Part shown: positions 9,340-39,209 of the stretch, piece after piece | Layout: every line of letters starts with the position of its first letter | How positions within the stretch are numbered: the stretch's first letter is position 1 | Source of the DNA: an uncultured Bacillales bacterium | GTDB lineage: Bacteria; Bacillota_I; Bacilli_A; RF39; UBA660 | Direction of reading: 5' to 3' | NCBI GenBank assembly: GCA_947306705.1 | Contig: CAMZHD010000001.1 | Span: 1-61,371 of the forward strand | Length of the DNA stretch: 61,371 bases | Notes under the pieces: generated by a model | Databases searched by the model: none | What the model was told of the DNA's origin: nothing | The model's input: the letters and a program-made list of their open reading frames with translations, nothing else | Program-made: the position numbers and the translations under genes

Positions 9340-10866
9340 TTATTTCAACTTCCTTAAACATTTATTCATGGCACCCATGTGATCAACTAATTCATCTCTT
9401 TCAAGGGCAGATGTTACTCTACCCACTAATTGATCTGTGTTTGGAAAGGAAATGGATTGACCTAAGATAATCTTTATTTTTTGTTGTTCATACATATATT
9501 TTAATAATTCTAATTCTGAAGTAATGACTCTTCCATCTGCTTCTTTATTTTTTAATTCCGTATAATCTAATAATTCAAAGAATCCTGAGTCAGGGATTGT
9601 TCCTTTTACGAAATGAACTCCTGGGATTCCTTCTAATAATTCTCCTGGATTTAAATCAGAAGAAGCATATCTCCTAATATCTTTTTCTACTTCTCTTCTG
9701 ATTCTAGGATCTTCAATGCAGTCTATTCCTTCTACTAATCCTTTTAATAATTCTAATCGATACTTATATTCTTCAATAATTGGATTGAAATAATTCTCAT
9801 ATGCTTGGTATCTCTCTGGAGATGCATTAAAAGCTGCTCCTAAAGCGACTCCTTGTAGTAAAGGAGAAGAATCCATATTTTGGAATATATAATTACGGAT
9901 TCCACGGATAATGGTTTCATCTGCGATTACCATTCCAGATCTTAGGGAAGCTAATCCATAACACTTAGATAATCCTGTAATAGATATTGTATTTCGAAAG
10001 AATTTTTCAAAAGAAGCCATTGGTAGAGATAAATCCTCTCTATCATATGTTAAGTCTCGATAAATCATATCATCGATTACAAATACTCCTTTTTCTAAAC
10101 AAACATCTCCTATTTTTTCTACTAATTCTTTCTTTTTACCATTCATTACTTTTCCTAATGGATTGTGTGGATTTTCATTTAGAAATGCTACAACTCTAGG
10201 AGTGTAATCTAATTTTCCTTCAAATTTCTTTTTTAACTCGGCATTTAACTCATCAATTCTTTTTGATAATTTTTCTGGATTTACATACCAATCATCTTCT
10301 TCGGATAAAGGTAATATTTCTACAGTAGCCCCTGAACTACGTTCTGGAACAAATGTGAATAATCCATAGTTAGGTCCTGTCATTAAAACAACGTCATAGG
10401 GTCTTGCGATTAAATTCATAATAATATTAAATGCTTGTGTCGTAGATACCGTAAAAATAACATTATTCTCATTTAAACCATTTGGGCTTTTGAATCCTTC
10501 TTTTTCTAGATACTCAACGATTCTTTTTCTAGATTCTTCATCTCCTGCGGCTAGTGGATATTCATACATATTATCCATTTCTATTAAGTCAATCATTGCC
10601 TTTTTACAAGGTTCAAAGATTTTTGTCTTCATAGGGCTTCCCCCACCAAGAGATTTCGTTTCCATTCCTCTGATTCTTTCATTTTCTAATTGATAGAGTT
10701 CGTTTCCATAAATAGAAAATGCATCATATATTCTTTTTACTTCTGGAGAAAATGGTTCTTTATCTGCTCGTGCTCCTAGATTTGGTAATCCTCTTACTTT
10801 ATATCTTAAAGATGGATTTTCTTCTAGAAATCTTTCAATTGAATCAATCTTATCCATGTTTCTCAC
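9340..10866 (-). CDS. PLP-dependent aminotransferase, class I/II fold, with a ~100-aa N-terminal extension
   Basis: NPHNPLG motif, DDMIYRDL, and a Schiff-base lysine context ITGLSKCYGLASLRSG. An alternative start is 9 nt downstream. Confidence 0.8.
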   Translation of the reverse strand: MRNMDKIDSIERFLEENPSLRYKVRGLPNLGARADKEPFSPEVKRIYDAFSIYGNELYQLENERIRGMETKSLGGGSPMKTKIFEPCKKAMIDLIEMDNMYEYPLAAGDEESRKRIVEYLEKEGFKSPNGLNENNVIFTVSTTQAFNIIMNLIARPYDVVLMTGPNYGLFTFVPERSSGATVEILPLSEEDDWYVNPEKLSKRIDELNAELKKKFEGKLDYTPRVVAFLNENPHNPLGKVMNGKKKELVEKIGDVCLEKGVFVIDDMIYRDLTYDREDLSLPMASFEKFFRNTISITGLSKCYGLASLRSGMVIADETIIRGIRNYIFQNMDSSPLLQGVALGAAFNASPERYQAYENYFNPIIEEYKYRLELLKGLVEGIDCIEDPRIRREVEKDIRRYASSDLNPGELLEGIPGVHFVKGTIPDSGFFELLDYTELKNKEADGRVITSELELLKYMYEQQKIKIILGQSISFPNTDQLVGRVTSALERDELVDHMGAMNKCLRKLK

Positions 10867-12679
10867 CTCTTTTTTTACAATATTCTTTTGCTTTTTCTAA
10901 TTCTTCTTCATATTCTTTTTGTACTTCTGGATCATCTGAATGAAGATACGTATCTATGGTTCCATCTTTAAACACTCTTATGAACCAGTCATAGGTACAT
11001 GTTGTGTAATCTTCTTCTTTCCCAGAAATTTGTCCATAATAATAAATCATACTTTCTCTTGTCGTTTCTTGAAACTTTGCAAATCTCAAGGAGATTAATA
11101 TTTTCTCTATTTCTCTATAATTATAATCATTTCCATCATGACGAGTTCTTTTAAAGATTTGATTGGTTTGATCACTATAAAGAGTATCTGGAATATATAA
11201 TTTTAAATCATGAATGGTTTTTTCTTCTTTTAAAGATACTAATCCTTGATAGGAATCAATTCCATTATAATATTGATGATTATCCTTTAGAATGGGATTA
11301 ATAATAAATGGTAATCTATTTTGATTATATGGAATTGTATTTTGATTGGTTAATCCGATAATAGAACCGATTAATTCAGGATCTTGATTTACAATTTCTT
11401 CTAATGCTTGTTTTACTGCTTCATAAAGTTTTCTACCTAGAATTTCATTTGGTACTCTTTTACTGGTTTCAATTCCTTGGGCTACTAGTACATTTCCATT
11501 TCTCATGAGTAATACCATACCAAAGTCTTTGTACTCTTCTGTTGAGATGGATAATAATCTCATATGAGGATTCGTTAAGAAATTATTAAAAAGAATAAAA
11601 GCATCTCCATTAATTCTAAAACAGTTTCCTGCTCGATATCCCATGACTAAGTTTCTTGGATCTTTTAAAGGAATCATTTCAAATGAATAATTTCCAATTT
11701 TCGGAATATCCACCTTTTTAATAGAAGACTTTGTCTTTTGTTTTAGTTTATCATTGTATGCTTGTAAATTCTTATCTATTACTTTTGATTCTTTCTCTGT
11801 AATATCATATTTATGATAATAAGAAGAAATCATATCTTGTAGAATATCTCCACTTAATTCTGGATTTTCTAATCTAGGAGATAAATATCTTTCTTTTAAT
11901 AATAAAATCACTTTGTTTCTATTTAGTTTATTTCCTAGTTTCTCTATAAATGCTTCTAAGGAATTATAGAAATAATCAAAGTTTAGGAATATTTCATTTA
12001 ATTCTCCTGAAAGCATTAATCTCATTGTATTATTTTGATCTTTTTTATTTCCAAATAAGAATTCTTGGAATACTTCTGTCTTTTCTCTTTTAGGATTTAA
12101 GTTTCCAAATAAGAAATGAATTGTTTCATAATCTACTTCTCCATATTTATTGGATAATAAATCAATTGAATTATTTAATCCAATAGAGAGAATCATTTTT
12201 ATTGCGATTCTTCTGATTTCTTCTTCTACTGGATGAGGAACTCTTTTTAATTTCCATTCTGGTCTTTCTTCTACACTCTTTTTAATAGGTAATTCTGAAT
12301 TAGAGTATTCTATGTTTTGTATCAAATTACTAATATATTTAATCTGTCTTTCTGGCACTTCAAAATAATCAGATGCTTGAATGGAATCGTCTGATAGAGA
12401 AACTTCACTTTTCTTTAAGAAGTTAATTAAATCATAAATATCTTTTGATTTCAAAGTATTCAATAATTCATCATATTCATTACTATGAAGAGTATGCATA
12501 AATAATCGGTAAAAATCTCTTGGCATTGATGTTCCATAATAATGATCTAAAAAGTATTTTAAAAGAGTAATATCTTCATAGGGAACTCTTGATAAAATTA
12601 AGTATAATTCAAAGATGTGAAAACTATTTAATTTCTTCTTACTTAAATTGTATAATCTTTGTTTTGCATTGGTTTTCAT
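10850..12679 (-). CDS. Hypothetical 609-aa cytoplasmic protein, first gene of the operon
   Basis: Long ORF with no motif I can assign. Start set to the second ATG (12679), after a GAGG SD. It overlaps the aminotransferase start by 17 nt. Confidence 0.45.
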   Translation of the reverse strand: MKTNAKQRLYNLSKKKLNSFHIFELYLILSRVPYEDITLLKYFLDHYYGTSMPRDFYRLFMHTLHSNEYDELLNTLKSKDIYDLINFLKKSEVSLSDDSIQASDYFEVPERQIKYISNLIQNIEYSNSELPIKKSVEERPEWKLKRVPHPVEEEIRRIAIKMILSIGLNNSIDLLSNKYGEVDYETIHFLFGNLNPKREKTEVFQEFLFGNKKDQNNTMRLMLSGELNEIFLNFDYFYNSLEAFIEKLGNKLNRNKVILLLKERYLSPRLENPELSGDILQDMISSYYHKYDITEKESKVIDKNLQAYNDKLKQKTKSSIKKVDIPKIGNYSFEMIPLKDPRNLVMGYRAGNCFRINGDAFILFNNFLTNPHMRLLSISTEEYKDFGMVLLMRNGNVLVAQGIETSKRVPNEILGRKLYEAVKQALEEIVNQDPELIGSIIGLTNQNTIPYNQNRLPFIINPILKDNHQYYNGIDSYQGLVSLKEEKTIHDLKLYIPDTLYSDQTNQIFKRTRHDGNDYNYREIEKILISLRFAKFQETTRESMIYYYGQISGKEEDYTTCTYDWFIRVFKDGTIDTYLHSDDPEVQKEYEEELEKAKEYCKKRGEKHG

Positions 12680-23405: not shown

Positions 23406-23924
23406 TTATCTATGTTTACGCTTTAGAAGTGTATATCCGCCGTAACTAAGGGCTCCTACAGATAATAATCCTATGATGGAGTCTCCTGATTCATTTTCTT
23501 TTTTTATTTGCTCTACTACTTCTTTTTCATAGACACAACTATTATCATCTACAGTAGCTTCTGGATTATAGTTTTCAGCATGCATGTTCATACAACCTTT
23601 AATATCATATTTACAGGAACCATCATCTACAGTTGCTTCTTTATTATAATTTTTTGCTTGTGGATCCATGCATCCTTTTACGGTATAGACACAGCTTCCA
23701 TCATCATGATTTGCATCTAAGTTATAGTTATCTGCTTTATAATCCGTACATCCCCATACTTCTGGTGGAGTACAAGTACATGTCTTACTTAAGGTATTAT
23801 CACAACACACTTGTCTTCCATATTTACTACAGCCACATACTCCTCCATGACTGGAACAACATCCTCTTGCGGCATAAATATTAATTGGAATGATTAATAG
23901 AATGATTAATAACAGTTTTCTCAT
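23406..23924 (-). CDS. Secreted Cys-rich protein with three ~24-aa C-x-D..A.NYN..A..DDGSC.Y repeats and a C-terminal TM anchor
   Basis: Signal peptide, then GCCSSHGGVCGC. Three repeats follow: GCTDYKADNYNLDANHDDGSCVY, GCMDPQAKNYNKEATVDDGSCKY, GCMNMHAENYNPEATVDDNSCVY. The tail is hydrophobic plus KRKHR. Start set to the ATG at 23924, after AAGGTG. Confidence 0.55.
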   Translation of the reverse strand: MRKLLLIILLIIPINIYAARGCCSSHGGVCGCSKYGRQVCCDNTLSKTCTCTPPEVWGCTDYKADNYNLDANHDDGSCVYTVKGCMDPQAKNYNKEATVDDGSCKYDIKGCMNMHAENYNPEATVDDNSCVYEKEVVEQIKKENESGDSIIGLLSVGALSYGGYTLLKRKHR

Positions 23925-23995
23925 TTCATTCACCTTACTCTTCTTAAATTATATCATAAGATAAGATATGATATAATGGTTATTGAAGTGATTGT

Positions 23996-26661: not shown

Positions 26662-26690
26662 AATATCCACAAGTTTTGTGGATATTTTTT
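26655..26690. terminator. Bidirectional terminator; near-identical copy at 28805-28840
   Basis: AAAAATAAAATATCCACAAGTTTTGTGGATATTTTTT. Stem ATATCCACA/TGTGGATAT. Confidence 0.75.
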
Positions 26691-27681
26691 AATTTGGGCA
26701 ATGAGAAAGGTCTATCTCTACTATTCGATAAATCCTTGTAGCTTGGTCTTCTATTTTATCTTCTATATGAAATGGAAAGTAATGTTCTTGTCGACATGCT
26801 TCATTCTCTTCAACAGTGTCTGCATCCCTTATACAATCATGATATTCGTGATCTTCAGAGTAAACAACTAATTGATGTTCTGGATCTTTTCCTAAAAATG
26901 CATTTAAACTATTCTGTGTTTCTTCATCTTCTGAAAGATAATATACACTCTTATCATATTCTGCAAAAGTCATTCCTCTTTCAAAAGGGAAAGTTCTTTC
27001 TTCTTCATGATCCTTGTCACACATGACTGTACGAATGACAAATGTTCCTTCTTGTCTTACTTCTACTTCTGCAGTCACAGTAAGAGAAAGTTTTTCATAA
27101 GCATAAATACTTAGTGGAATCATCCATACTGTCAATAATAGATACATTATTTCTTTTCTACCACTACTGATTCCAATAGAGATAATTACAAATCCTAATA
27201 CTAACAACAAAATAATTATTGCTCTTGTATTTGTCTTTGGATTTTCTTCGTTCGATAAGTTTAATTCCATATTATTGTTTTCTACGTAAACACCATTTAC
27301 AAAATCATCATCATCTACTGGAGATTGATAAACAATTTTAATAAAGAATTCTTTTTCTTCATTTGCTTTAATAATTCTACTATTATCTTCTGATAAATAT
27401 TCATATTTTATAAAGTCTCCTGATCCAAACTCTTTTGCATTAGCAATTTCATATGGAGTATTCGTATTATTCTTAATTATAATTTTATATTTAGCATAAT
27501 CTTCTACATCAACAAACTTTAAGAAGAAATCAATTTTTAATCCTTCAAATTGGATTGGTTTTGTTTCTCCTGCTTTATCAGATTTTTCTACTAATATTGC
27601 TTCTTTAATTTCGACATTTTCTTTTGCGAATACAAAGGCTGGGAATAATAATATTACTAACAATAATAATACTTTTTTCAT
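26689..27681 (-). CDS. Envelope protein, paralog A: signal peptide, beta-rich domain, internal NPKTN sorting-like signal, TM hairpin, C-terminal Cys/His/acidic domain
   Basis: Signal peptide MKKVLLLLVILLFPAFVFA. NPKTN, a hydrophobic stretch and GRKE occupy residues 147-177. A second signal-like segment MYLLLTVWMIPLSIYA/YEK follows. It is a paralog of 27704-28762. Confidence 0.6.
   Translation of the reverse strand: MKKVLLLLVILLFPAFVFAKENVEIKEAILVEKSDKAGETKPIQFEGLKIDFFLKFVDVEDYAKYKIIIKNNTNTPYEIANAKEFGSGDFIKYEYLSEDNSRIIKANEEKEFFIKIVYQSPVDDDDFVNGVYVENNNMELNLSNEENPKTNTRAIIILLLVLGFVIISIGISSGRKEIMYLLLTVWMIPLSIYAYEKLSLTVTAEVEVRQEGTFVIRTVMCDKDHEEERTFPFERGMTFAEYDKSVYYLSEDEETQNSLNAFLGKDPEHQLVVYSEDHEYHDCIRDADTVEENEACRQEHYFPFHIEDKIEDQATRIYRIVEIDLSHCPN
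27229..27243 (-). other. Internal NPKTN motif (sortase-B-type sorting-signal look-alike)
   Basis: The minus strand reads AATCCAAAGACAAAT = N-P-K-T-N, followed by 21 hydrophobic residues and SSGRKE. Confidence 0.4.
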
Positions 27682-27703: not shown

Positions 27704-28762
27704 CTAAGTCAGAGAACATTTTACTCCCGTATTATAATAATCACCAATATCTTGTGTTTGAATTTCATCTTTATAAGATACTACGTGAGAATTTGACAAA
27801 ACACAATTTCTATATTCTCGATCGGCTTCTGCTTGTTGTTCCACTGCTTGAGCACGTTCTTCCTCTGTCATATCATCACTAAATGATGGATATACGATAG
27901 GATCAACACATTCACTAAAATCTATCGCATTAAAAAATTCTAGGTAATCAGATTCTGTAGCAGATGTATTTGGTTTATCTTTTATCATTGACAATGAAGT
28001 TTCAATTCTATTTTTCATTTCTTCAGTAAGTGTATTATTATCTTGGTAACTATTATCTAATTCTTCCCATGTCATTCCTTTAATAAATGGAAAGTCAGTA
28101 GGTTCACAGTCAATAGATCCTTGCGTAGAACCAATCGTTCCGACTTTTACGACTGTTTCCATTTCTAGTGTTATTTTTTCATAAGCAAAGATTGTCGTTG
28201 GGATTAAAATGAATAACGCAATCAAAAGAACCATTGCACTTTTATTTGTTGTTAAAACTCCAACTGTTAACAAAATAAATGCGATCATTAATATAACTAA
28301 TAAGACTGTCTTTGTAGAAGTTTTAGGATTATCTCCATTAGATAGGTCAATATTCATGGCAATTTCTTCTTCATATTTTCCATCTACAAGATCTGTATCT
28401 TCAATTTCGTTACAATTGATTGTAATATAGGCTTGTTTTTCTTTCCCTGCTTTTACGATATTCCCCTCTTCTTGATTAAACTCTACTGAATATGTTACGT
28501 ATTTTCCATTTTTTTGATTTTGTACACTTGTTATTTCATAATCCTTGTTTGAATCATTTTGAATCGTAACAACATATTTCATAGTTCCGCCTTCTATTGA
28601 AAACCGAATCATTGATTTGATTTTTAATCCTTCAAAACTGATTGGTTCAATTTCTGTGGAATTCCCTTCTACTAATTCGATGTTTTTAATATATACATCT
28701 TCTTTTGCGAATACAAAGGTTGGGAATAATAATATTATTAATAAAAATACTATCTTTTTCAT
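27704..28762 (-). CDS. Envelope protein, paralog B (same architecture as 26689-27681)
   Basis: Signal peptide MKKIVFLLIILLFPTFVFA. NPKTS, a hydrophobic stretch and TTNKS come next, then MVLLIALFILIPTTIFA/YEK. The RBS and start region is identical to paralog A (TTTTTTCATAAGTCACCTCTATT on the plus strand). Confidence 0.6.
   Translation of the reverse strand: MKKIVFLLIILLFPTFVFAKEDVYIKNIELVEGNSTEIEPISFEGLKIKSMIRFSIEGGTMKYVVTIQNDSNKDYEITSVQNQKNGKYVTYSVEFNQEEGNIVKAGKEKQAYITINCNEIEDTDLVDGKYEEEIAMNIDLSNGDNPKTSTKTVLLVILMIAFILLTVGVLTTNKSAMVLLIALFILIPTTIFAYEKITLEMETVVKVGTIGSTQGSIDCEPTDFPFIKGMTWEELDNSYQDNNTLTEEMKNRIETSLSMIKDKPNTSATESDYLEFFNAIDFSECVDPIVYPSFSDDMTEEERAQAVEQQAEADREYRNCVLSNSHVVSYKDEIQTQDIGDYYNTGVKCSLT
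28316..28330 (-). other. Internal NPKTS motif (sortase-B-type sorting-signal look-alike)
   Basis: Residues 145-149 of paralog B, in the same position as NPKTN in paralog A. Confidence 0.4.
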
Positions 28763-31447: not shown

Positions 31448-31476
31448 AAAGTCTCCTTTTGGGTTTAGTATAGCAT

Positions 31477-31505
31477 AAAAAAAAGACTAACAAATAGTCT
31501 TTTTC
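31477..31505 (-). terminator. Rho-independent terminator ending the fibre/HINT operon
   Basis: Stem AAAAGACTA/TAGTCTTTT with loop ACAAA. The minus strand continues TTTTTTATG. Confidence 0.75.
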
Positions 31506-32021
31506 TTATTTTTCTTTCTTTACTTTAATAGATTTAAATAGTTCTTGGACTTTTTTATCATTTACGACATCTGCTACTACAACTTCTTCTTTTGTATCAA
31601 GTCGAGATACAGATACGAAGATTGCTTTTGCCATATCATTTTCATCCTCTAATAAGATATTTAAGTAAGCTCCACTTGTATATTCTCCATACATGTAAGC
31701 TTCATAGTCTCCAAACTTATACTCATTAAAGTATTTCTTTTCAGAACGAGATTTTTTTAGATTATCATAGGTAGCTTTACGAGATTCAATATAATACATT
31801 TCAAACTCTAAATCTAATTCTTCATTCTTAAATGTAATCTCTGTTGTCTTTCCACTATGATCTTCTTCTGGTTCTGTATAAACTTCTTTTTCTGGATATG
31901 AGAATGTTGTGGTATATCCAAATTCTTTATCAGATAATTTGATTTCTTTTAAATTACTCTTTCCACATCCTGTTACTAAAACTAATAATAGTACTAGTAT
32001 TAAAACAATTTTCTTTTTCAT
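31506..32021 (-). CDS. Lipoprotein (171 aa), last gene of the fibre/HINT operon
   Basis: MKKKIVLILVLLLVLVTGCGKS lipobox. Start set to the internal ATG at 32021, because the longer track ORF (to 32102) would overlap the upstream gene by 47 nt. Confidence 0.6.
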   Translation of the reverse strand: MKKKIVLILVLLLVLVTGCGKSNLKEIKLSDKEFGYTTTFSYPEKEVYTEPEEDHSGKTTEITFKNEELDLEFEMYYIESRKATYDNLKKSRSEKKYFNEYKFGDYEAYMYGEYTSGAYLNILLEDENDMAKAIFVSVSRLDTKEEVVVADVVNDKKVQELFKSIKVKKEK

Positions 32022-32055
32022 ATAGTCCTTCCTTTCGCACTTATTATAACACATT

Positions 32056-34317
32056 TTATTGTTTTTCAAAATGCATTCCTGTCCAAACTTGTACTTTTTC
32101 ATGTGAATGGTAATATTTGTGCTCAGAAGTAGAGTACCAAGTTCCTTCTGGAAGTTCGAAAGTGTCTCCTTCTTTGATGTATTCTTTCTCTGTTAGATTA
32201 ATGGATACTGGCCAATAACGAGAACCTTCTCTTTCAATTGGTTTTTGTAACATAAAGTCACTGGTAATCCATAGACTGATATAATCTTTGAAATCAATTA
32301 GAGATACTCCTTTATTTAATAGGACTGCTAATTCTCCTGCTCTGAAACCTTTATACATGTAATATGGTAATACATCTTGTAGGTATTCATAGTCTAATTC
32401 TTCATTGGTTTTTCCTTGCCATTTCATTTGATCATTAAATTCATATAAATTCGTAATATCCGTAAATGCATCTGTTGTGACAAAATCATCTGAAATAATA
32501 TTCCAATAACGAGTAGAAGCTACAAAGTAGAAGTTTACTTCTTCTTTGACGGTTTCTATCTTTGTTACTTGTACCGTTTTTAGATTATTGTTTTCTACTT
32601 TTGCGATATTTGTTCCTATATGGAATTCTTCACTATTATCAGCAGATACGAATCTATGAAGATCTTCACTAAAGAAAGCATGACTTCCTACGATTTTGAT
32701 TTCTGAATTATCTGAGAATGTAATCTTTGTATATTCTTTTGTTTTCTTTTCTTTTTCAATCCAGATTGGATATTCTCTTGTAAGAGTTCCTGTATCATAA
32801 CTCCATACCATTAATAAGTCATCATACGTAATATCTTCAACATTCTTTGTTGTATTGTCTCCTAATAGAACTTTCGTTCCTTCTACTAAACAACCATTTC
32901 CTGTTTGACCGGTAATGACTAAGTCTCCTGTAACATTTGGAACACTTAATCGTCCATTATTTGCATTATAGGTATATTGTGTATTTGATAGAGTATTTCC
33001 TCCCATCGTAATGTTTAAATTATTTGGACGGGTTCTATTGTTGTTTGCAGTAATTGTAGTTGTATAGGTTTGTCCATAATCAACTGTATAGTTACCATTT
33101 GGACCTCCTTGTGTAATATTAACTCTTACATTCATGGTCCAAATATAGTTTCTTGTCTCACTTTGTGCAGAGGAACTATTTCCACTAGTATCATAGGTTG
33201 TTACCTTGAAATAATAATTTCCTTCTTGTAATCCTGTTACTAGATATTCTTGTTCATCTGACTGGGTTTGATTCGTTGATACTAATGTAGCATTGTTGTT
33301 TACAACTCTATATGTTTCAATGACACTATGATCTACTCCAATATCATCAGATGCATTAAAGGTTACATTAACAGATCCTCTTGTTGTCTGCATAGTTCCT
33401 ACAACATTAGATACTGTTGGAGGGGTTACATCTACTAATGTACTATCCGTTGTAACATAAGCTATTACTACACCCATACTAGTTCTTGAAGAATCAGATG
33501 GTTCTAAGTAGATGTTCATACTTTGCCTTTCGGCTGCAAAACGGGCTTCTGATTTCACTTTTAAATAAATATTATAAGTTTCTGTTCCATTCGCAAGAAT
33601 GGTATATTCTTCTAATGGTTGATTATTACTATCTACTAAATAAAAATTATCATTGCTTACTGTAATATGAAAATTCTTAGGTGCTTCATATGTATTCATA
33701 ACAGTTGCGGCAATCGCGATGGATTGATTTGTATTTTTCAAATCTCCTGAGATATTCTTAGGAATGGATCCTAATAATCTTCCTGTTGGTTCTCCTTGTT
33801 CTAATTCAAATTCTGTATCTCCTGATACATTGAAATTACCTGAATTGTTAGGAGTCATTATTATTTTCAATGTGAATGTTACTGAATCTAGAGTTGGGAT
33901 AACATCCCCTGCTTCTATTCCCTCTAATTCGTAACTAACTTCCATATCCTCATTATTAATGGTAGTTAAAGAGGGATTAAAATGAGTTTCATTAAATGTA
34001 TAATCATAGAATGTATTATTACTAATTGTAATGGTATACAATCCATAATATTCATCTTGTAGAGCTTCTTCTGTTGGTGCTACATTAAAATTCATATTAA
34101 AATGAATAGAATGCCCATCTATTGTTGGATTCTCTTGATTCAATAAGTTCTTATAATCTGTTAAGATTGCACTGGAAATTACAATTTCTCCATTTTTAGT
34201 AAACGTACTTTGTCCTTCAATTCTTGCTTGTGCATTATAGACTGCATATCCTACAGAAGTAAATGCAAAAAGAAGAAGTGCAATCAAAGTAACGATGATA
34301 CTTTCCTTACTTTTCAT
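32056..34317 (-). CDS. 753-aa secreted multidomain protein: TasA-type N-terminal signal and domain, Ig/Fn3-like modules, HINT (intein-like) domain, unknown 138-aa C-terminal module
   Basis: The N-terminus ...SVGYAVYNAQARIEGQSTFTK parallels that of the 183-aa protein at 36550-37101. The Fn3-like region is VTPPTVSNV...GLQEGNYYFKVTTYDTSGNSS. HINT motifs are GNG-CLVEGTKVLLGD (block A, Cys476) and KIVGSHAFFS (block B). Confidence 0.65.
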   Translation of the reverse strand: MKSKESIIVTLIALLLFAFTSVGYAVYNAQARIEGQSTFTKNGEIVISSAILTDYKNLLNQENPTIDGHSIHFNMNFNVAPTEEALQDEYYGLYTITISNNTFYDYTFNETHFNPSLTTINNEDMEVSYELEGIEAGDVIPTLDSVTFTLKIIMTPNNSGNFNVSGDTEFELEQGEPTGRLLGSIPKNISGDLKNTNQSIAIAATVMNTYEAPKNFHITVSNDNFYLVDSNNQPLEEYTILANGTETYNIYLKVKSEARFAAERQSMNIYLEPSDSSRTSMGVVIAYVTTDSTLVDVTPPTVSNVVGTMQTTRGSVNVTFNASDDIGVDHSVIETYRVVNNNATLVSTNQTQSDEQEYLVTGLQEGNYYFKVTTYDTSGNSSSAQSETRNYIWTMNVRVNITQGGPNGNYTVDYGQTYTTTITANNNRTRPNNLNITMGGNTLSNTQYTYNANNGRLSVPNVTGDLVITGQTGNGCLVEGTKVLLGDNTTKNVEDITYDDLLMVWSYDTGTLTREYPIWIEKEKKTKEYTKITFSDNSEIKIVGSHAFFSEDLHRFVSADNSEEFHIGTNIAKVENNNLKTVQVTKIETVKEEVNFYFVASTRYWNIISDDFVTTDAFTDITNLYEFNDQMKWQGKTNEELDYEYLQDVLPYYMYKGFRAGELAVLLNKGVSLIDFKDYISLWITSDFMLQKPIEREGSRYWPVSINLTEKEYIKEGDTFELPEGTWYSTSEHKYYHSHEKVQVWTGMHFEKQ
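32473..32892 (-). other. HINT / bacterial intein-like autoprocessing domain (residues ~476-615 of the 753-aa protein)
   Basis: Cys476 (codon 32890-32892, TGT) in CLVEGTKVLLGDNTTKNVEDITYDDL. A TxxH-like block is present (GSHAFF). A hydrophobic block F/G-like segment VNFYFVASTRYWNIISDDFVTT is present, but there is no terminal HN plus Cys/Ser/Thr. Confidence 0.6.
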
Positions 34318-35357
34318 CTTCTAGCACTCCTTCTATATTTTCTTTTTTCTAAGACATATTTCCAAGCTGTATTATCATTGAATAAGATAAATATACTTCT
34401 GTCGTCTTTTTGATAACAGTTAATTGGCATTCTTATTTCACTATGAGCATCAATTAATTCTTCGAAGCTTTCTACTTTGATTAAATTATAATCATCTAAT
34501 CTAGGTTCTTCTTCTACGTTAACAATGATACTATCATAGGTTGTTAAGATTTTCTTTAATTCTAATTCATATTGATTATTCATCTTATATATCTTTTTAT
34601 TATGGATTAGTAACCATATAAAGAAGGCACCTGCGATAAATAATAGAACTCCCATTATTTTCCATAATAGATATCTTATATTATGATCTTCAAATGTTTC
34701 TGTAAATGATTTTACTTGATTATCAATATCACTATCGATAGATGCCTCTATTGCTAATTCTGACAATGGTAATTTTAATATCAAATCACTATCTACTTTT
34801 GTTTTTAGATCATCATTTTCTAACTTATTCTTTACTTTTAAATATACTTTTAGAACTCCTTCTGATTGTAGTCCTAATGTCTTTTTAAAACTATTTAGCA
34901 TTTCATTGTATTGATTATAATCAATCTTTACATTTTGATGAATTGCAAAGTTTTCTTTTTGATTGAATCTTTCTTGTTTGACTTTTGTTACTTCATATTC
35001 TTTTGTCCAGTAATTGCCTGAATTACTATCAGCTTTATTGGCTTCGATCTTCGCAATTACTTGATATTCTACTTCTCCATCTACTGGTTGATCAAAATAG
35101 ATGTTATAAGAATAATCCGCATCAATATAATCAATTAAGCTTGTGATATAGGTTTTTCCTTTTTCAATAAAAGGTTCTTCAAAGAATGCATTCTCTTTTA
35201 AATATACTTTGTAGTCAATATCATTATCTTCTTTATATTTTAAAGATAGTGTTTTCTTATTTTGAAAACCTGTATATAGGAATAAGACACCTAAGAAAAA
35301 GCATACAAGAAAAGATGACAAGATAATTATTTGTCTTTTCGTATACGAATTTTTCAT
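34314..35357 (-). CDS. Two-TM membrane protein with a ~200-aa extracytoplasmic domain (unknown function), operon member
   Basis: TM segments at residues ~12-32 and ~235-255. Translationally coupled to both neighbours (4-nt overlaps). Confidence 0.5.
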   Translation of the reverse strand: MKNSYTKRQIIILSSFLVCFFLGVLFLYTGFQNKKTLSLKYKEDNDIDYKVYLKENAFFEEPFIEKGKTYITSLIDYIDADYSYNIYFDQPVDGEVEYQVIAKIEANKADSNSGNYWTKEYEVTKVKQERFNQKENFAIHQNVKIDYNQYNEMLNSFKKTLGLQSEGVLKVYLKVKNKLENDDLKTKVDSDLILKLPLSELAIEASIDSDIDNQVKSFTETFEDHNIRYLLWKIMGVLLFIAGAFFIWLLIHNKKIYKMNNQYELELKKILTTYDSIIVNVEEEPRLDDYNLIKVESFEELIDAHSEIRMPINCYQKDDRSIFILFNDNTAWKYVLEKRKYRRSARR

Positions 35358-36484
35358 CCACTCGTCTCCTCTCCAATAAATACATCATGGAACCATAGAG
35401 TTGGATAACCAATATACTTCACTGAGTACTTAACGACTCCTAATACCTCTTCATCTTTGACTTTAAAGGAGTCAGGGGTTTTATTGGCATCTCCTTTAGT
35501 TTGAAACTGATAATGACTGTCTATTTTTTCTATATTCATTACTCTATGAGTAACAATTATTCCTTCTTTTTTGAAAACTAATATTTCTCCAATTTCTACA
35601 TTCTTAGCAGCTTTCTTTTGATAGACAACTGCATCTCCTCTACAATACGTTGGTTTCATGGAATTAGAACCAATCGAAATCATTGTATGAGTGAAGAATC
35701 CAGATACTAGGAATACTAGTATCAATAGAAATGTAAATGCTGGAATATAAAATAATCTTCTTATGGTTTGTTTTTGATATATTTCTTGTTTATCTTGGTA
35801 GTGACTTAATCTTCCTACAAAGAAATAAACTCCATAAGGTAATGCAATATTCGCAACTGCATATAAATAGTTTCCTAAACTAGGAATAATTGGTAGTACC
35901 AATTCATATAAGTATAAAGATAGTTTAAATACAATACTTGGTTTATAACTAACTTTATAAGTGATATAGGAACAAACGGCTTCTCTACTTATAATTGGTA
36001 ATACAACGGTTGTTGCAAATATAAATAGAGCTTCATGATCTGCTAGATTCAAACCATTTATTTCTAGGATAATATTTAAACATGATAAAACGAAAGCATA
36101 CAAAAGTACAGGTAATTTTTGATGTGGTGTATTACGACAGATAATATATCGTACAATTTCTTCCAAAACAATTACAATGGTTCCCAATCCAATGATTCTT
36201 AATAAATAATCTCCATTGAATGAGAAAACTGTATGATGGAATCCTGTTAATAATCCAATCATATAGATTGTTAATAAATATACCAAGATACTAGATATTA
36301 CAATTCTAGTAACGATTTTTTGAGTATAATTATTATCTTTCATCATTCCAAATCTAGCAATAAAGTATATAGATATTAAAATGATGGATAAATCTAATAG
36401 ATAAGGATTTCGTATGATTTGAGTAAATACTATCATACAAATAAATAATAATAATTCTAAAAAATAGATTTCCCATTTTTTCAT
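35354..36484 (-). CDS. SipW-type (ER/archaeal-type, Ser-His) signal peptidase I fused to an N-terminal ~260-aa polytopic membrane domain
   Basis: The C-terminal domain has SIGSNSMKPTYCRGDAVVY (catalytic Ser in SMxP) and GIIVTHRV (His). About 8 hydrophobic segments precede it. Confidence 0.7.
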   Translation of the reverse strand: MKKWEIYFLELLLFICMIVFTQIIRNPYLLDLSIILISIYFIARFGMMKDNNYTQKIVTRIVISSILVYLLTIYMIGLLTGFHHTVFSFNGDYLLRIIGLGTIVIVLEEIVRYIICRNTPHQKLPVLLYAFVLSCLNIILEINGLNLADHEALFIFATTVVLPIISREAVCSYITYKVSYKPSIVFKLSLYLYELVLPIIPSLGNYLYAVANIALPYGVYFFVGRLSHYQDKQEIYQKQTIRRLFYIPAFTFLLILVFLVSGFFTHTMISIGSNSMKPTYCRGDAVVYQKKAAKNVEIGEILVFKKEGIIVTHRVMNIEKIDSHYQFQTKGDANKTPDSFKVKDEEVLGVVKYSVKYIGYPTLWFHDVFIGEETSG

Positions 36485-36503
36485 GTGATCAACCCCATTA
36501 TGA

Positions 36504-36541
36504 TTATAAGAATTATCCCATAGGAGGGATAATTCTTATAA
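36504..36541 (-). other. Perfect 16-bp intra-operon RNA stem-loop between the small-subunit gene and the peptidase gene
   Basis: TTATAAGAATTATCCC-ATAGGA-GGGATAATTCTTATAA. No U-tract follows on the minus strand. Confidence 0.7.
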
Positions 36542-36549
36542 TACTCGGA

Positions 36550-37101
36550 TTAATTTGTTTTTGCTTCGTAATCTAAACCAACTGTAAGAGCTACTGTTAC
36601 ATCATCAGAAGGTAAATCTGTTGCCTCTTCTGGTAAAAGGTATTCAACATGTACTTTTACAGTATGAGAAGCGTTTCCAGCTAAAGCGATTGCTAAGCCA
36701 TCAGTTGTTTCTGTATAGTCAGTTCCATTATAAGTTACTGTATAATCGATAAACTTCTTTTGTGCATCTGTTAATCCAGATAAAGTAATTTTCTTTAAAA
36801 GAGCATCGATTGTACCAAAGTTTTTAGCATTTACACTGAATTCATATTCGTCTCCAGGTTTTTCTAAGGTAACTTCATAAGTAATTAAAGTGTTACCTAC
36901 ATCCTTTGTGGTTGCAGTAATAGTAGTATTTTCATTAAATGTAGTAGTATCAAAATGTACATCCCAAACTGCTTTTGAGAATGTAGCACTACCATTAATA
37001 TTTAAAGTTTGTGCATATACTGCGTAACCAATTGACATAACTAATACAGCTGCTGCTAAAACAATCATAACAACATTTTGAACTAAATTTTCTTTTCTCA
37101 T
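36550..37101 (-). CDS. TasA/camelysin-like small secreted subunit (183 aa)
   Basis: N-terminal anchor and signal ...VLVMSIGYAVYAQTLNINGSATFSK. The beta-rich body includes TLEKPGDEYEFSVNAKNFGTIDALL, which from memory resembles the TasA L.PGD...F...N.G segment. Start set to the ATG at 37101, after GGAGGAG. Confidence 0.55.
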   Translation of the reverse strand: MRKENLVQNVVMIVLAAAVLVMSIGYAVYAQTLNINGSATFSKAVWDVHFDTTTFNENTTITATTKDVGNTLITYEVTLEKPGDEYEFSVNAKNFGTIDALLKKITLSGLTDAQKKFIDYTVTYNGTDYTETTDGLAIALAGNASHTVKVHVEYLLPEEATDLPSDDVTVALTVGLDYEAKTN

Positions 37102-37123
37102 ATTCTCCTCCAATCTTATCTTT

Positions 37124-37153
37124 ATTTTATCATTGTCTTTTTTTTCATGTAAA
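37124..37153 (-). promoter_or_regulatory. Putative sigma-A promoter of the fibre operon
   Basis: The minus strand reads TTTACA (37153->37148)-18 nt-TAAAAT with a TG extension (TGATAAAAT, 37132->37124). Confidence 0.45.
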
Positions 37154-37163
37154 TAAAATGCAA

Positions 37164-37205
37164 GAAAAAAAAAGAATAGTGTACTATACTTTACACTATT
37201 TTTTT
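37164..37205 (-). terminator. Rho-independent terminator of the HTH gene
   Basis: Stem AATAGTGTA/TACACTATT with an 8-nt loop. The minus strand continues TTCTTTTTTTTT. Confidence 0.75.
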
Positions 37206-37713
37206 AATTATTTAGTAATTTACAGTTATGATCATATAGAAATTCATTAATTTGAGATAGGTTATAAATGTGTTCTTTGAAACAGAATCGTAAGATTAAA
37301 TCATAGGTTGAATTCTTTGGGAGTGAGTAAGATGCACTTTTTAGTAAGTCTTCTATTTCTTCTTCACTACATTCTAGGGCGATTCCTAATAATAGAATGG
37401 TTTCTTTACTAGGATGATACTCTTTATCACTTCTAATTTTACTGAATAATCGACGATCAATATTTACTTTATTATAGACATCTGAGTCTTTTAAATTTTT
37501 AGAATCAATCATATTAAATAATTTCATTTGAAAGGTATCTTCTTCTTTTTCTTTATCAATATATTCTCCAATCGATCCAGATTCATTGCAGCATTCTTCT
37601 TCCATTCTAGCGGATGCCATCATTCTCTTCGCAACTGGTAATACTCCGATGAAGGCTCCTTCTGGATATTGATTCTGCATTAAGTATTTTTCTAATTTTA
37701 CTTTGATATTCAT
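37204..37713 (-). CDS. Putative HTH DNA-binding protein (169 aa)
   Basis: DVYNKVNIDRRLFSKIRSDKEYHPSKETILLLGIALECSEEEIEDLL is an XRE-like HTH arrangement seen in many Firmicutes. Start set to the ATG at 37713, after AAGGAGGGG. Confidence 0.5.
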   Translation of the reverse strand: MNIKVKLEKYLMQNQYPEGAFIGVLPVAKRMMASARMEEECCNESGSIGEYIDKEKEEDTFQMKLFNMIDSKNLKDSDVYNKVNIDRRLFSKIRSDKEYHPSKETILLLGIALECSEEEIEDLLKSASYSLPKNSTYDLILRFCFKEHIYNLSQINEFLYDHNCKLLNN

Positions 37714-37785
37714 AAATGTCCCCTCCTTGGCGACCAAATGGTTTTCTTTTTACGATATTATTATACCAGAAAAGGAGAGAGGATT

Positions 37786-38376
37786 ATGAAAAAAGAAAGA
37801 AAAAAATTGGATGTTGTCTTTATTCTAGACAAAAGTGGTTCTATGGGAGGAAGTGAAGATCATACGATTAGTAGCTTCAATGAATATTTAGAAAGGGAAA
37901 AGAAAAATCGTTTTGATACCTATATCACAACTATTTTATTTAGTGATTCTTATCACGTATTATACCAAGATAAAAATGTGAAAGAGGTTTCTCCTCTTAC
38001 AAGAGAAGAATACTATGTAGGTGGATGTACTGCTTTATATGATGCATTAGGAAACGCAATTCATTCTAAAGAACATTCTAAAAAAGCATTATTTGTTATT
38101 ATTACAGATGGATATGAAAATGCATCAAAGGAATATTCAAAAGATAAGATTCGTAAGATGATTAAGAGTCATTCTAACTTTGAATTTGTTTATATAGGAG
38201 CTGATATTGATTCTTATGCAACGGGAGGAGAACTCGGAATTAAAAGAGATAATATTGCGAATTATACAAAGTCAGGAGAAGGAACTTCTAAACTCTTTAG
38301 AGCTGTTGGTAACTTTGAATGTGCGATGATGGAAGAAAGCTGTGCATCTGCTTCTTGGAAAGAAGAGTTAGAGTAA
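37786..38376 (+). CDS. Cytoplasmic von Willebrand factor A (vWA) domain protein
   Basis: MIDAS motif DVVFILDKSGSMGG, later GGCTALYDAL and VIITDGYEN. Start set to the ATG at 37786, after AAAGGAGAGAGG. Confidence 0.7.
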   Translation: MKKERKKLDVVFILDKSGSMGGSEDHTISSFNEYLEREKKNRFDTYITTILFSDSYHVLYQDKNVKEVSPLTREEYYVGGCTALYDALGNAIHSKEHSKKALFVIITDGYENASKEYSKDKIRKMIKSHSNFEFVYIGADIDSYATGGELGIKRDNIANYTKSGEGTSKLFRAVGNFECAMMEESCASASWKEELE

Positions 38377-38380
38377 CTGT

Positions 38381-38408
38381 AAAATAGAGAATTTCTCTAT
38401 TTTTTTTC
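38381..38408 (+). terminator. Rho-independent terminator of the vWA gene
   Basis: Stem ATAGAGA/TCTCTAT followed by T8. Confidence 0.65.
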
Positions 38409-38447
38409 TTTTTTGTTTGTGGTATTCTATTAATAGTAGGTGGTTGT

Positions 38448-39209
38448 GTGATACGAAATAATTTTCATCGTAAAATGCAAGAAAAGATACAACAGTATTC
38501 CAATCAACAATATCTAGATGGATATGTAAAAAGAGAATTTCTTACAAATGATGGAGATGCTGATATCTTTTTCCATATTGATAATCGAAATGACCTAATC
38601 GATAGTTGTTCTTATGGGGAACAATTGTCTCTTGATTGGGGTGTTTATGATTTCTTAGAAGAAAAGACTTCTATGCTTGGAAGTGATATTCCTATCCACT
38701 TCCATATTAAAGGAATTGCATTACCTTCTAAAGAACAAGAAGCGATTCGTCATATTTTTAAAGAACATTATGCCATCGAATTATTTAAAGTACAAAAGAA
38801 ATATGTTCAATGTCGAAATAAAATTATTAAGTTAGTATGTTCTGGAACATTCTTTTTACTTGCTTATGCTCTTCTTTATTTATTTACAGATTTTGATTTC
38901 TTTATGACGGTATTTGGATTTTTATTTTCTTTCTCTTTGTGGGAGGCATTTGATGCTTATATCTATACTTTTAATGATATTAAAATTGAAAGAGAAGCTG
39001 TTACTCAGAATCTTTTAACCAATATTGTTTTTGAAGAAGAAAAGAATGTGGAAGAAGAGAAGGAAGAACCGGAAGAAGATATGGTAGAAGATCCTTCGAA
39101 TGGATTCTACCAAGAAGATGAAAATGAAAATCCACCAGAAGAGTCTGATGGATTTGATACAAACCATGTTCAAGAAGATATTCTTGATATTGATGAAGAA
39201 TTAATCTAA
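38448..39209 (+). CDS. Membrane protein with two TM segments and an acidic C-terminal tail
   Basis: Hydrophobic pair at residues ~130-175. The C-terminus is E/D-rich (EEEKEEPEEDMVED...). The start codon is uncertain (GTG at 38448 or the ATG 27 nt downstream). Confidence 0.4.
   Translation: MIRNNFHRKMQEKIQQYSNQQYLDGYVKREFLTNDGDADIFFHIDNRNDLIDSCSYGEQLSLDWGVYDFLEEKTSMLGSDIPIHFHIKGIALPSKEQEAIRHIFKEHYAIELFKVQKKYVQCRNKIIKLVCSGTFFLLAYALLYLFTDFDFFMTVFGFLFSFSLWEAFDAYIYTFNDIKIEREAVTQNLLTNIVFEEEKNVEEEKEEPEEDMVEDPSNGFYQEDENENPPEESDGFDTNHVQEDILDIDEELI

Follow-up and report, generated by a model that had tools for sequence, protein, structure and literature searches.

A fibre-type locus of an uncultured Bacilli bacterium, with predicted TasA-superfamily subunits, a polytopic signal peptidase and a large subunit bearing a Hint domain

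A cluster of five genes in a 61,371-nt stretch of DNA from an uncultured Bacillales bacterium (contig CAMZHD010000001.1 of assembly GCA_947306705.1; the whole stretch is referred to here as the window) raises the question of whether it encodes a surface fibre and, if so, of which kind. The window is AT-rich (30.5% G+C), and the five genes are co-directional, lying on the minus strand between positions 37153 and 31475. A preliminary description had placed them at 31506-37153, where all the open reading frames (ORFs) were indeed found, and had presented them as a TasA/SipW-like fibre operon after the tapA-sipW-tasA paradigm of Bacillus subtilis. From this proposal, a fibre type served by a dedicated Ser/His peptidase is retained, and the tapA-sipW-tasA paradigm is given up, the closer counterparts being AbpX, an archaeal protein of Pyrodictium abyssi with homologs in Bacillota and Chloroflexota (bioRxiv 10.64898/2026.01.04.697558), and the haloarchaeal Tafi system (tafA-tafG; PMC11821415; PMC12337348). 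We consider it likely that four of the genes, for a small subunit, a signal peptidase, a DUF5305 protein and a large subunit, together specify a TasA-superfamily fibre of the cell surface or matrix, exported via Sec and built on the AbpX/Tafi plan. The locus represents a distinct clade of this superfamily, organised like AbpX and Tafi, and does not belong to the TasA/camelysin family. Polymerisation, the cleavage site, the activity of the Hint domain, the fate of the large subunit's C-terminal domain and the anchoring of the fibre are predictions. The coordinates of all features are collected in Table 1.

The fold of the small subunit carries much of this assignment. In its 183-aa form (an alternative TTG start would give 187 aa), residues 1-28 constitute a signal/transmembrane helix ending in S-I-G-Y-A, residues 29-47 the presumed donor strand (VYAQTLNINGSATFSK...), and residues 48-180 a beta-sandwich body; the predicted mature protein has an isoelectric point of 4.35 and contains 14.7% Asp+Glu. 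The AlphaFold2 (AF2) model displayed a mean predicted local distance difference test (pLDDT) score of 89.8, with residues 29-47 unstructured and of lower confidence. When this model was compared to the PDB with Foldseek, the best match was the AbpA pilus (7ueg, E 4e-5), followed by the TasA fibre (8aur, E 3.5e-4) and the Saci_0406 thread (7pnb, E 2.5e-3), all three being donor-strand fibres matched with a Foldseek probability of 1.0; several chaperone-usher pilins appeared among the lower matches. A search of the PDB with the small-family profile returned AbpX (9sj2/9rhp) as the best match, with E 1e-3, the AbpX segment PGdeyeftvnvkNeGTidA being aligned with PGAEVNVTFTLENVGTIPA. The three fold matches and the AbpX profile match, together with an amphipathic N-terminal arm that is unstructured in the monomer and carries an aromatic residue near its start, are the traits that place the small subunit in the TasA superfamily.

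The N-terminal arm resembles a donor strand in its conservation as well. Within the small-subunit family, G25 is nearly invariant and A27 invariant at the junction, and the mature sequence follows the consensus A/x-[YF]-x-Q-T-L-N-I-N-G-T-A (the slash marking the predicted cut), with Tyr or Phe at position 2. The conserved stretch reaches about 16 residues past the predicted cut and shows a strand-like alternating pattern. In the AF2 models, residues 29-47 of the small subunit and 23-41 of the large one are the only low-confidence, unstructured stretches, lying beside well-folded bodies. The donor strand of AbpX behaves in the same way when modelled as a monomer, being unstructured and of lowered confidence (bioRxiv 10.64898/2026.01.04.697558).

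A Ser/His SipW-type peptidase encoded beside a secreted beta-sandwich protein that contains a PGD...N.G segment, and the TasA fibre as second-best fold match, would also suit an ordinary member of the TasA/camelysin and SipW families, that is, a tapA-sipW-tasA operon with some extra genes, working as in B. subtilis. The segment, which had been described as TasA-like, is present at residues 79-100 of the small subunit in the form L.KPGD...N.G, and L79, P82, G83, N94, G96, T97, D99 and A100 are invariant or nearly so in the family. It is not diagnostic of TasA, because among 47 family members the generic DUF11 beta-sandwich model was the commonest weak match (17/47) and outnumbered weak matches to Peptidase_M73, found in only 4 members, all of them sub-threshold (best E 1.4e-3). 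Searches with the family models that had been proposed as a check gave no membership: at E <= 0.1, neither the small nor the large protein matched Peptidase_M73 (PF12389)/camelysin or the SipW-signal models (TIGR04088/04089/04090-type), and the latter did not appear among the 25 commonest family matches of the 47 members (E <= 1). No curated family matched the small subunit. Moreover, the peptidase scored 54 bits against the Bacillus SipW equivalog model NF046067, whose cut-off is 190, and it has about nine transmembrane segments; a DUF5305 gene is present, no TapA-like gene was found at the locus, and the junction is of the type G-[YF]-A rather than G-G-T-x-A-x-F-x-D. The hidden Markov model (HMM) results thus largely refute a TasA/camelysin-family assignment, and we regard an ordinary tapA-sipW-tasA system as very improbable.

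Returning to the AbpX/Tafi-like fibre, a second line of evidence comes from the large protein, which starts with the same module as the small one. When the small-family profile was compared by hhalign with one made from residues 1-185 of the large family, the probability was 99% (E 6.4e-18, 144 columns), and the homology spans signal, junction, strand and body. On these profiles, the N-terminus of the large subunit is best described as a paralog of the small subunit, and the likeness of the two junctions as homology and not chance. In the large family, G23 is invariant and A25 nearly invariant (51 rows) or, in the 21-row N-terminal alignment, invariant. The junction peptides that had been quoted for both proteins (36973-37035 and 34195-34257) translate exactly, and are the only two matches to S-[IVL]-G-Y-A-[IVL]-[YF] across the six frames of the window. 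The common signal and junction make both proteins likely substrates of the operon peptidase, as had been suggested. Likewise, the proposal of a major fibre subunit plus a large accessory or tip subunit accords with a large protein that begins with a small-subunit paralog, as would be expected of a minor, tip or accessory subunit. A profile search of the PDB with the N-terminal domain of the large subunit returned only noise, and its link to the fibre fold therefore rests on homology to the small subunit.

The AF2 model of the large subunit showed a mean pLDDT of 85.4, with residues 23-41 below 50. Behind the N-terminal module, the three immunoglobulin (Ig)/FN3-like domains, presumed to form the shaft or an adhesive part, gave weak Pfam matches to DUF4998, Y_Y_Y and PKD, and Foldseek matches to FN3 arrays and to Enterococcus WxLIP. 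Across the 122 clusters of the large family, in which identity falls to about 30%, the full-length architecture with its C-terminal domain is retained.

The peptidase and DUF5305 genes provide a third line of evidence. The peptidase exceeded the cut-off of TIGR02228 (87.5 bits against 51.85), and its catalytic residues S275 (in SNSMKP), H313 (THRV) and D332 (KGDAN) are conserved in 41 orthologs, which upholds its description as a SipW-type enzyme with a Ser/His pair rather than Ser/Lys. The protein is a fusion in which a polytopic membrane domain of about 245 aa precedes the catalytic domain (residues ~266-376), and hydropathy indicated about nine hydrophobic segments between residues 6 and 265. 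For comparison, AbpX-linked peptidases are reported to have ten transmembrane helices instead of the usual two (bioRxiv 10.64898/2026.01.04.697558). The membrane domain (residues 1-245; 35750-36484, minus strand) matched no curated family, and G77, F82, E109, R112, P198 and P201 are kept across the 41 orthologs. It contains a CPBP-like EExxxR motif (EEIVRY), which we discarded as a family assignment: only E109 and R112 are conserved, and there was no match to Pfam Abi/CPBP.

The two-transmembrane protein encoded next had been regarded as lacking a counterpart. This did not stand, as the protein belongs to DUF5305 and consists of a transmembrane segment (residues 10-28), an external domain, a second transmembrane segment (234-252) and a cytoplasmic tail. 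In AbpX and Tafi loci, DUF5305 proteins (TafG in the latter) adjoin the dedicated peptidase, to which they are sometimes fused, and have been proposed as accessory to it (bioRxiv 10.64898/2026.01.04.697558; PMC11821415); in the searchable literature, the mentions of DUF5305 concern Tafi or AbpX loci throughout. By analogy, the DUF5305 protein described here may assist its peptidase as an accessory subunit. Deletion of the peptidase in the Tafi system of Haloarcula blocks both subunit processing and fibre formation (PMC11821415; PMC12337348).

Conservation of the locus was assessed in 56 related loci, one genome per species, found with an alignment of the Hint region of the large protein and containing close relatives of it. 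Barring evident mislabels, they come from uncultured rumen and gut metagenome-assembled genomes labelled as Bacilli, Erysipelotrichaceae, Tenericutes or Mollicutes. The complete order small-peptidase-DUF5305-large was found in 30 of the 56, while a further nine have the peptidase and DUF5305 genes beside the large gene, and most others are cut by contig ends. Judged from gene order, these four genes form the conserved core of the system. In some related loci, the small-subunit gene occurs twice or the small-peptidase-DUF5305 set is present a second time; in L002, L004, L016, L024 and L036, a second and more divergent set adjoins the first, which suggests duplicated fibre systems. At another locus, L042, the large gene is directly followed by genes for two proteins of about 200 aa (10106-10759 and 10830-11423), with signals ending in G-A-T-F-A-Y-F-S. 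These correspond to the classical SipW-cognate signal type, with a score for TIGR04088 (16.3) below its cut-off of 19, so that two signal classes may coexist at this one locus.

The most unusual part of the large subunit is its Hint domain, for which the preliminary description had seen no counterpart in the paradigm. We agree, since none is described in TasA-, AbpX- or Tafi-type systems: the AbpX preprint (bioRxiv 10.64898/2026.01.04.697558) mentions neither Hint nor intein, and no paper within the searchable literature combines TasA, a donor strand and Hint. The fold was matched by Foldseek to the Tetrahymena bacterial intein-like (BIL) domain BIL2 (6y75; TM-score on the target 0.78, root-mean-square deviation 2.9 A) as well as to inteins, and the sequence models fell below their thresholds (TIGR01445 intein_Nterm, 23.7 against 24.5 bits; Pfam Hint, 15.3 against 29.7 bits). 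Among the members covering the region, the nucleophile Cys476 is present in 50/50, the block-B histidine His546 in 45/45, Asn606 in 46/46 and Thr614 in 44/45. Fold, Cys and His place the domain in the Hint superfamily. The domain ends in T614-T615-D616 and not in His-Asn, and the next residue is Gly or Ala; with neither a C-terminal His-Asn nor a +1 nucleophile, intein splicing is not possible, and N-terminal thioester formation and cleavage are available. BIL and Hedgehog Hint domains share the fold, the N-terminal Cys, the block-B His and the chemistry of N-S acyl shift with N-terminal cleavage, and the domain described here differs from them in having no His-Asn/+1 nucleophile and in ending a donor-strand subunit, followed by a conserved extension of about 135 aa.

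The distribution of the domain bears on its role. As a cassette, the Hint domain and the first ~50 aa of the extension also form the very end of a range of unrelated large proteins, some of them without signal peptides, and the alignments mostly start exactly at Cys476. Conversely, natural Hint-less variants of the large subunit end in ...GCG precisely at the Hint start; one of them, P0224, is encoded in a four-gene locus that is identical in all other respects and has genes for MurD, Lgt and a GH25 lysozyme among its neighbours. The simplest interpretation of these sequences is that the Hint domain is most likely a self-removing C-terminal module. A link of the cassette to phages was also considered and found weak: a PHROGs scan of eight other cassette proteins matched only one of them to a phage virion structural protein, and a viral fold search showed that Hint domains are present in phage proteins.

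Two further readings of the Hint domain were weighed. In polymorphic toxins of the PT-HINT type, a Hint domain is followed by a C-terminal domain and then by a small gene. The large subunit has such a layout, with a C-terminal domain behind the Hint domain and a lipoprotein gene immediately downstream, as if Hint released a C-terminal toxin to which the lipoprotein gave immunity. The C-terminal domain, however, is conserved and not variable, no toxin family was matched, the gene downstream of the large subunit is unrelated in each related locus, the lipoprotein being absent from them, and the Hint-less variants keep the locus intact. We therefore rejected the toxin/immunity reading, which is scarcely credible.

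The other possibility is that the Hint domain acts as a transferase, the thioester at Gly475 being resolved by a nucleophile recruited by the C-terminal domain, so that the large subunit would become covalently linked to the envelope or another protein. The invariance of the catalytic Cys and His, the Tetrahymena BIL2 domain as closest solved Hint structure, a conserved extension placed like the sterol-recognition region of Hedgehog, and a conserved module with no LPXTG, SLH or other anchor are all compatible with this activity. Nothing points to a nucleophile, however; the cassette also ends signal-less proteins, one of them phage-virion-like, which is better explained by a removable pro-domain, and both Hint-less variants and separate anchor candidates exist. 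A transferase is accordingly a doubtful option, at distinctly long odds. If it were true, the nucleophile could be, for example, a lipid of the envelope, a wall precursor or a lysine of another subunit, and the result a sortase-free covalent attachment.

The separate anchor candidates are two tandem genes downstream of the operon in the window, whose products are 38% identical to each other and were detected with the N-terminal profile of the large subunit. Proteins of this body-only family start with an ordinary signal peptide and a pilin-like body that lacks the donor strand; then follow, one after the other, an N-P-x-T-[SNG] motif, a first transmembrane segment (TM1) with a basic loop, a second one (TM2), a junction resembling G-Y-A/donor strand, and a variable C-terminal domain (17 clusters). 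In the motif, P and T are invariant and N nearly invariant; a transmembrane segment and K/R follow. Sortase substrates have an LPXTG/NPXTN-type motif with a hydrophobic span and a basic tail at the very C-terminus; here, 180-200 residues lie behind the motif. Paralog 1 carries N-P-K-T-S and its TM2 ends in ..TIFA-YEKITLEMETVVKV, while paralog 2 carries N-P-K-T-N with TM2 ending in ..LSIYA-YEKLSLTVTAEVEV; in the latter, a third matched stretch consists of TM2 and the junction, aligned to the signal/donor-strand part of the profile. In hhalign comparisons, the family matched the large N-terminal profile with a probability of 98.3% (E 1.5e-14) and the small-subunit profile with E 3.6e-7, the alignments to subunit profiles beginning just after the donor-strand position.

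A membrane-held body that accepts but does not donate a strand has the expected look of a cell-proximal anchor, and, judged from their architecture, the body-only paralogs may be the best candidates for such a role in this fibre. Homologs accompany the fibre operon in two relatives: in L008 they immediately precede the small-subunit gene, and in L006 they are close to the operon. The arrangement also resembles sc-AbpX, an engineered circular permutant of AbpX. Two body-only clusters (P0403 and P0404) end in an intein-type Hint domain, which, if the transferase activity considered above were true, would make Hint-mediated ligation general in gut-Bacilli fibres. Both the body-only paralogs and the Hint-bearing subunit appear to be undescribed so far.

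These paralogs also bear on whether there is a fibre at all, a question raised by the passenger domains found in the small-subunit family. The initial search found 129 clusters of homologs of the small subunit. When the profile was searched against 1.84 billion cluster representatives, with clusters at 50% identity, it matched 9108 clusters at E <= 1e-3, 5226 at E <= 1e-10 and 1054 at E <= 1e-30; the ten clusters that were checked were named solely 'hypothetical protein'. The small-subunit family is thus very large and has no curated model. Many of the best matches are about 185 aa long, and in many others the module stands at the N-terminus of proteins of 300-900 aa, with passenger domains such as DUF285/LRR, DUF4886 and ALK_LTK_GRD behind it.

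Fusion to so many passengers is what a generic export or display module would show, and the proteins might accordingly be individual surface proteins, anchored by their signal or released, with the peptidase and DUF5305 protein serving export only and the N-terminus acting as a specialised secretion signal. Several observations weigh against a fibre of the proposed type. The TM-scores of the top fibre matches are low (0.38-0.39), partly because the model includes the 28-residue signal helix and the loose N-terminal arm; the AbpX sequence match is borderline; position 4 of the donor strand is Gln in most members and acidic in AbpX-like proteins; the curated TasA/camelysin and SipW-signal models fail to match, and weak matches to the generic beta-sandwich models DUF11 and CARDB are at least as numerous; and the cleavage site is deduced only from small residues at positions -1 and -3. 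As for anchoring, the window holds no sortase gene (TLxTC), and the role of the paralogs, which lie 3-10 kb away, is argued from their architecture and from no more than two relatives in which homologs adjoin the operon. A specialised secretion signal, on the other hand, does not account for conservation that continues, in an alternating pattern, well beyond the cut through a stretch unstructured in monomer models, as in donor-strand subunits. The best structural matches are all donor-strand polymers and not other beta-sandwiches, and paralogs with a body and no strand are hard to explain unless strands are exchanged. On balance, we consider the absence of a fibre unlikely.

For the fibre, the following course of assembly is proposed. 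Each subunit carries at its N-terminus a membrane-spanning signal that ends in S-[VI]-G-[YF]-A. The operon peptidase, probably together with the DUF5305 protein, would cut after the junction Ala at the outer face of the membrane and free an N-terminus of the form x-[YF]-x-Q-x-L-x-I-x-G-x-A, an amphipathic strand that is unstructured in monomer models. This strand would enter the open beta-sandwich groove of a neighbouring subunit by donor-strand complementation, and repeated donation would make the 183-aa protein the bulk of the fibre, its mRNA probably being kept above the downstream message by a hairpin behind its gene. The 753-aa protein would join the same polymer via the same strand and body, and its three Ig-like domains would be a terminal or decorating part of it. 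After export, the Hint domain would most likely form a thioester at Gly475-Cys476 and cut itself off along with the C-terminal domain, so that the mature large subunit would end where the natural Hint-less variants end. The two body-only paralogs would be candidates for the cell-proximal anchor.

Set against known systems, the closest resemblance is to AbpX, an acidic jelly-roll protein of about 160 aa whose N-terminal donor strand has an aromatic residue at position 2, traits that recur in the small subunit with its presumed donor strand. The loci are alike in their many-transmembrane signal peptidase I, two-transmembrane DUF5305 protein and larger 'tip' or minor subunits that share the pilin module. 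The sequence relation is nevertheless only borderline (E 1e-3), and the proteins studied here form a separate clade. Position 4, a conserved acidic calcium ligand in AbpX, is Gln here; ten transmembrane segments in the peptidase there correspond to about nine here; the conserved module includes no SLH/LPXTG anchor and no c-di-GMP or kinase genes; and the large subunit ends in a Hint domain. The Tafi system likewise comprises one or more fibre subunits, a dedicated peptidase (TafD) and a DUF5305 protein (TafG), and the proteins proposed as its tip and membrane anchor use the same jelly-roll. It differs in using the twin-arginine translocation (Tat) pathway, with twin-arginine signals, whereas the signals here are of Sec type, and in a TafD with four transmembrane segments and two external domains; no sequence similarity of the locus proteins to TafA or TafE was detected.

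With tapA-sipW-tasA, the locus shares a Ser/His SipW-type peptidase beside a beta-sandwich fibre subunit, and a second, larger protein with the same signal type. The sequence family and the junction motif are others, TapA is missing, and the DUF5305 protein, the polytopic domain of the peptidase and the Hint-bearing subunit are additional here. Chaperone-usher pili resemble the proposed fibre in donor-strand assembly, in having major and specialised terminal subunits, and in the differential expression of the major subunit. In contrast, there is no chaperone, usher or outer membrane here, the proteins are unrelated in sequence, and strandless subunits are membrane-tethered instead of being distal adhesins.

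As regards transcription, the preliminary description had bracketed the five genes with one promoter and one terminator. The terminator, claimed at 31477-31505, is real and slightly longer (Table 1). The promoter claimed at about 37124-37153 exists as a consensus-like site, but this class of match is not above expectation: 61 promoter-like sites were found in the region, against 65.7 expected from shuffled sequence. Its position is the sole argument in its favour: it lies within a 90-nt gap just past the hairpin and U-run of the upstream gene. Within the unit, the peptidase, DUF5305 and large-subunit genes are coupled by a 4-nt overlap at each junction. The small-subunit gene, on the other side, is separated from them by a strong stem-loop that follows it directly, with a perfect stem of 15-17 bp; none of 200 shuffles folded as well. 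This hairpin and the end terminator were folded directly, a conventional terminator scan having missed both because their stems are AT-rich, and an Rfam scan of the whole window gave no matches. Of 28 related loci, 16 (L001, L005, L006, L008, L009, L017-L019, L031, L038-L043 and L052) have a hairpin of 13-17 bp at the equivalent place, 3' of the small-subunit gene, with differing sequences and preserved pairing, which fits a differential expression of the major subunit. We presume that it may be a transcript-stability element or a leaky attenuator that favours the major subunit and sets the stoichiometry.

The fifth gene encodes a lipoprotein whose ORF spans 198 aa (31506-32102) and whose likeliest start, at 32021, gives 171 aa (MKKKIVLILVLLLVLVTGC), preceded by its own AAGGAAGGA ribosome-binding site. 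Its place among the five was confirmed in part. The gene is co-directional and probably co-transcribed with the operon, and it does not belong to the system: none of the 56 related loci contains a homolog, the gene following the large subunit being a varying one, and this places the lipoprotein, which matched no curated family, outside the conserved module as a passenger gene. An extended -10 element, TGTTATAAT, occurs at 32042-32050 (minus strand) in the 34-nt gap before the gene, which may therefore also be transcribed separately.

Table 1. Features of the fibre locus and of the body-only paralogs in the 61,371-nt window (aa, amino acids; ER, endoplasmic reticulum).
Feature	Positions	Strand	Details
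Promoter-like site	37124..37153	-	TTTACA, 18 nt, TG-n-TAAAAT; 10/12 consensus matches
Small-subunit gene, presumed major fibre subunit	36550..37101	-	ATG start, GGAGGAG ribosome-binding site, 183 aa
Stem-loop between small-subunit and peptidase genes	36503..36542	-	17 bp, no U tract; -29.9 kcal/mol, z -6.0
Dedicated signal peptidase I, archaeal/ER/SipW type	35354..36484	-	376 aa; TIGR02228
DUF5305 protein	34314..35357	-	347 aa; PF17231 E 6.7e-14, 52.3 bits against cut-off 29; start overlaps peptidase stop by 4 nt
Large-subunit gene	32056..34317	-	753 aa; start overlaps DUF5305 stop by 4 nt
Large subunit, aa 1-176	33790..34317	-	Signal ending in S-V-G-Y-A, presumed donor strand aa 26-42, pilin-like beta-sandwich
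Large subunit, aa 181-471	32905..33777	-	Three Ig/FN3-type beta-sandwich domains (AF2 secondary structure)
Large subunit, aa 476-616	32470..32892	-	Hint domain, bacterial intein-like type
Large subunit, aa 617-753	32059..32469	-	C-terminal extension: helices aa ~619-684, small beta domain aa ~699-752
Lipoprotein gene	31506..32021	-	171 aa, lipobox L-V-T-G-C
Intrinsic terminator closing the transcription unit	31475..31509	-	Hairpin -15 kcal/mol, z -6.3, then U8
Body-only paralog 1	27704..28762	-	352 aa; hmmsearch with large N-terminal profile, E 2.4e-5
Body-only paralog 2	26689..27681	-	330 aa; hmmsearch with large N-terminal profile, E 8.5e-8

Some neighbouring genes deserve mention. Upstream of the operon, at 37204-37737 (minus strand), a 177-aa protein gave a weak match to a Cro/C1-type helix-turn-helix; it was considered as a regulator of the system and set aside, its position being conserved only in the closest relative (L001). 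Divergent from it, at 37738-39209 (plus strand), are genes for a VWA-domain protein and for a 253-aa membrane protein with an acidic tail. Farther away, a 1525-aa protein (51472-56049, minus strand) with FHA and FtsK/SpoIIIE ATPase domains resembles the EssC-type ATPase of type VII secretion. On the same strand, a secreted 652-aa protein with a Beta_propel domain (PF09826; 21356-23314) adjoins a secreted 175-aa Cys-rich protein (23406-23933) with repeated C-x-x-x-D-D-x-S-C units, a C-terminal transmembrane helix and a basic tail.

It is only since 2022 that the TasA-superfamily donor-strand fibres of bacteria and archaea have been connected with one another, and the locus plan of a subunit, a many-transmembrane peptidase, a DUF5305 protein and a tip protein was set out only in 2025-2026; the locus described here is an instance of this plan in uncultured Bacilli with small genomes from rumen and gut. 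The invariant Cys and His of its Hint domain suggest an autoproteolytic, possibly ligating, maturation of a fibre subunit, and the membrane-tethered paralogs with a body and no strand suggest how such fibres gain anchoring and polarity. Finally, the small-subunit family could account for much of the unannotated surface-protein content of gut metagenomes.

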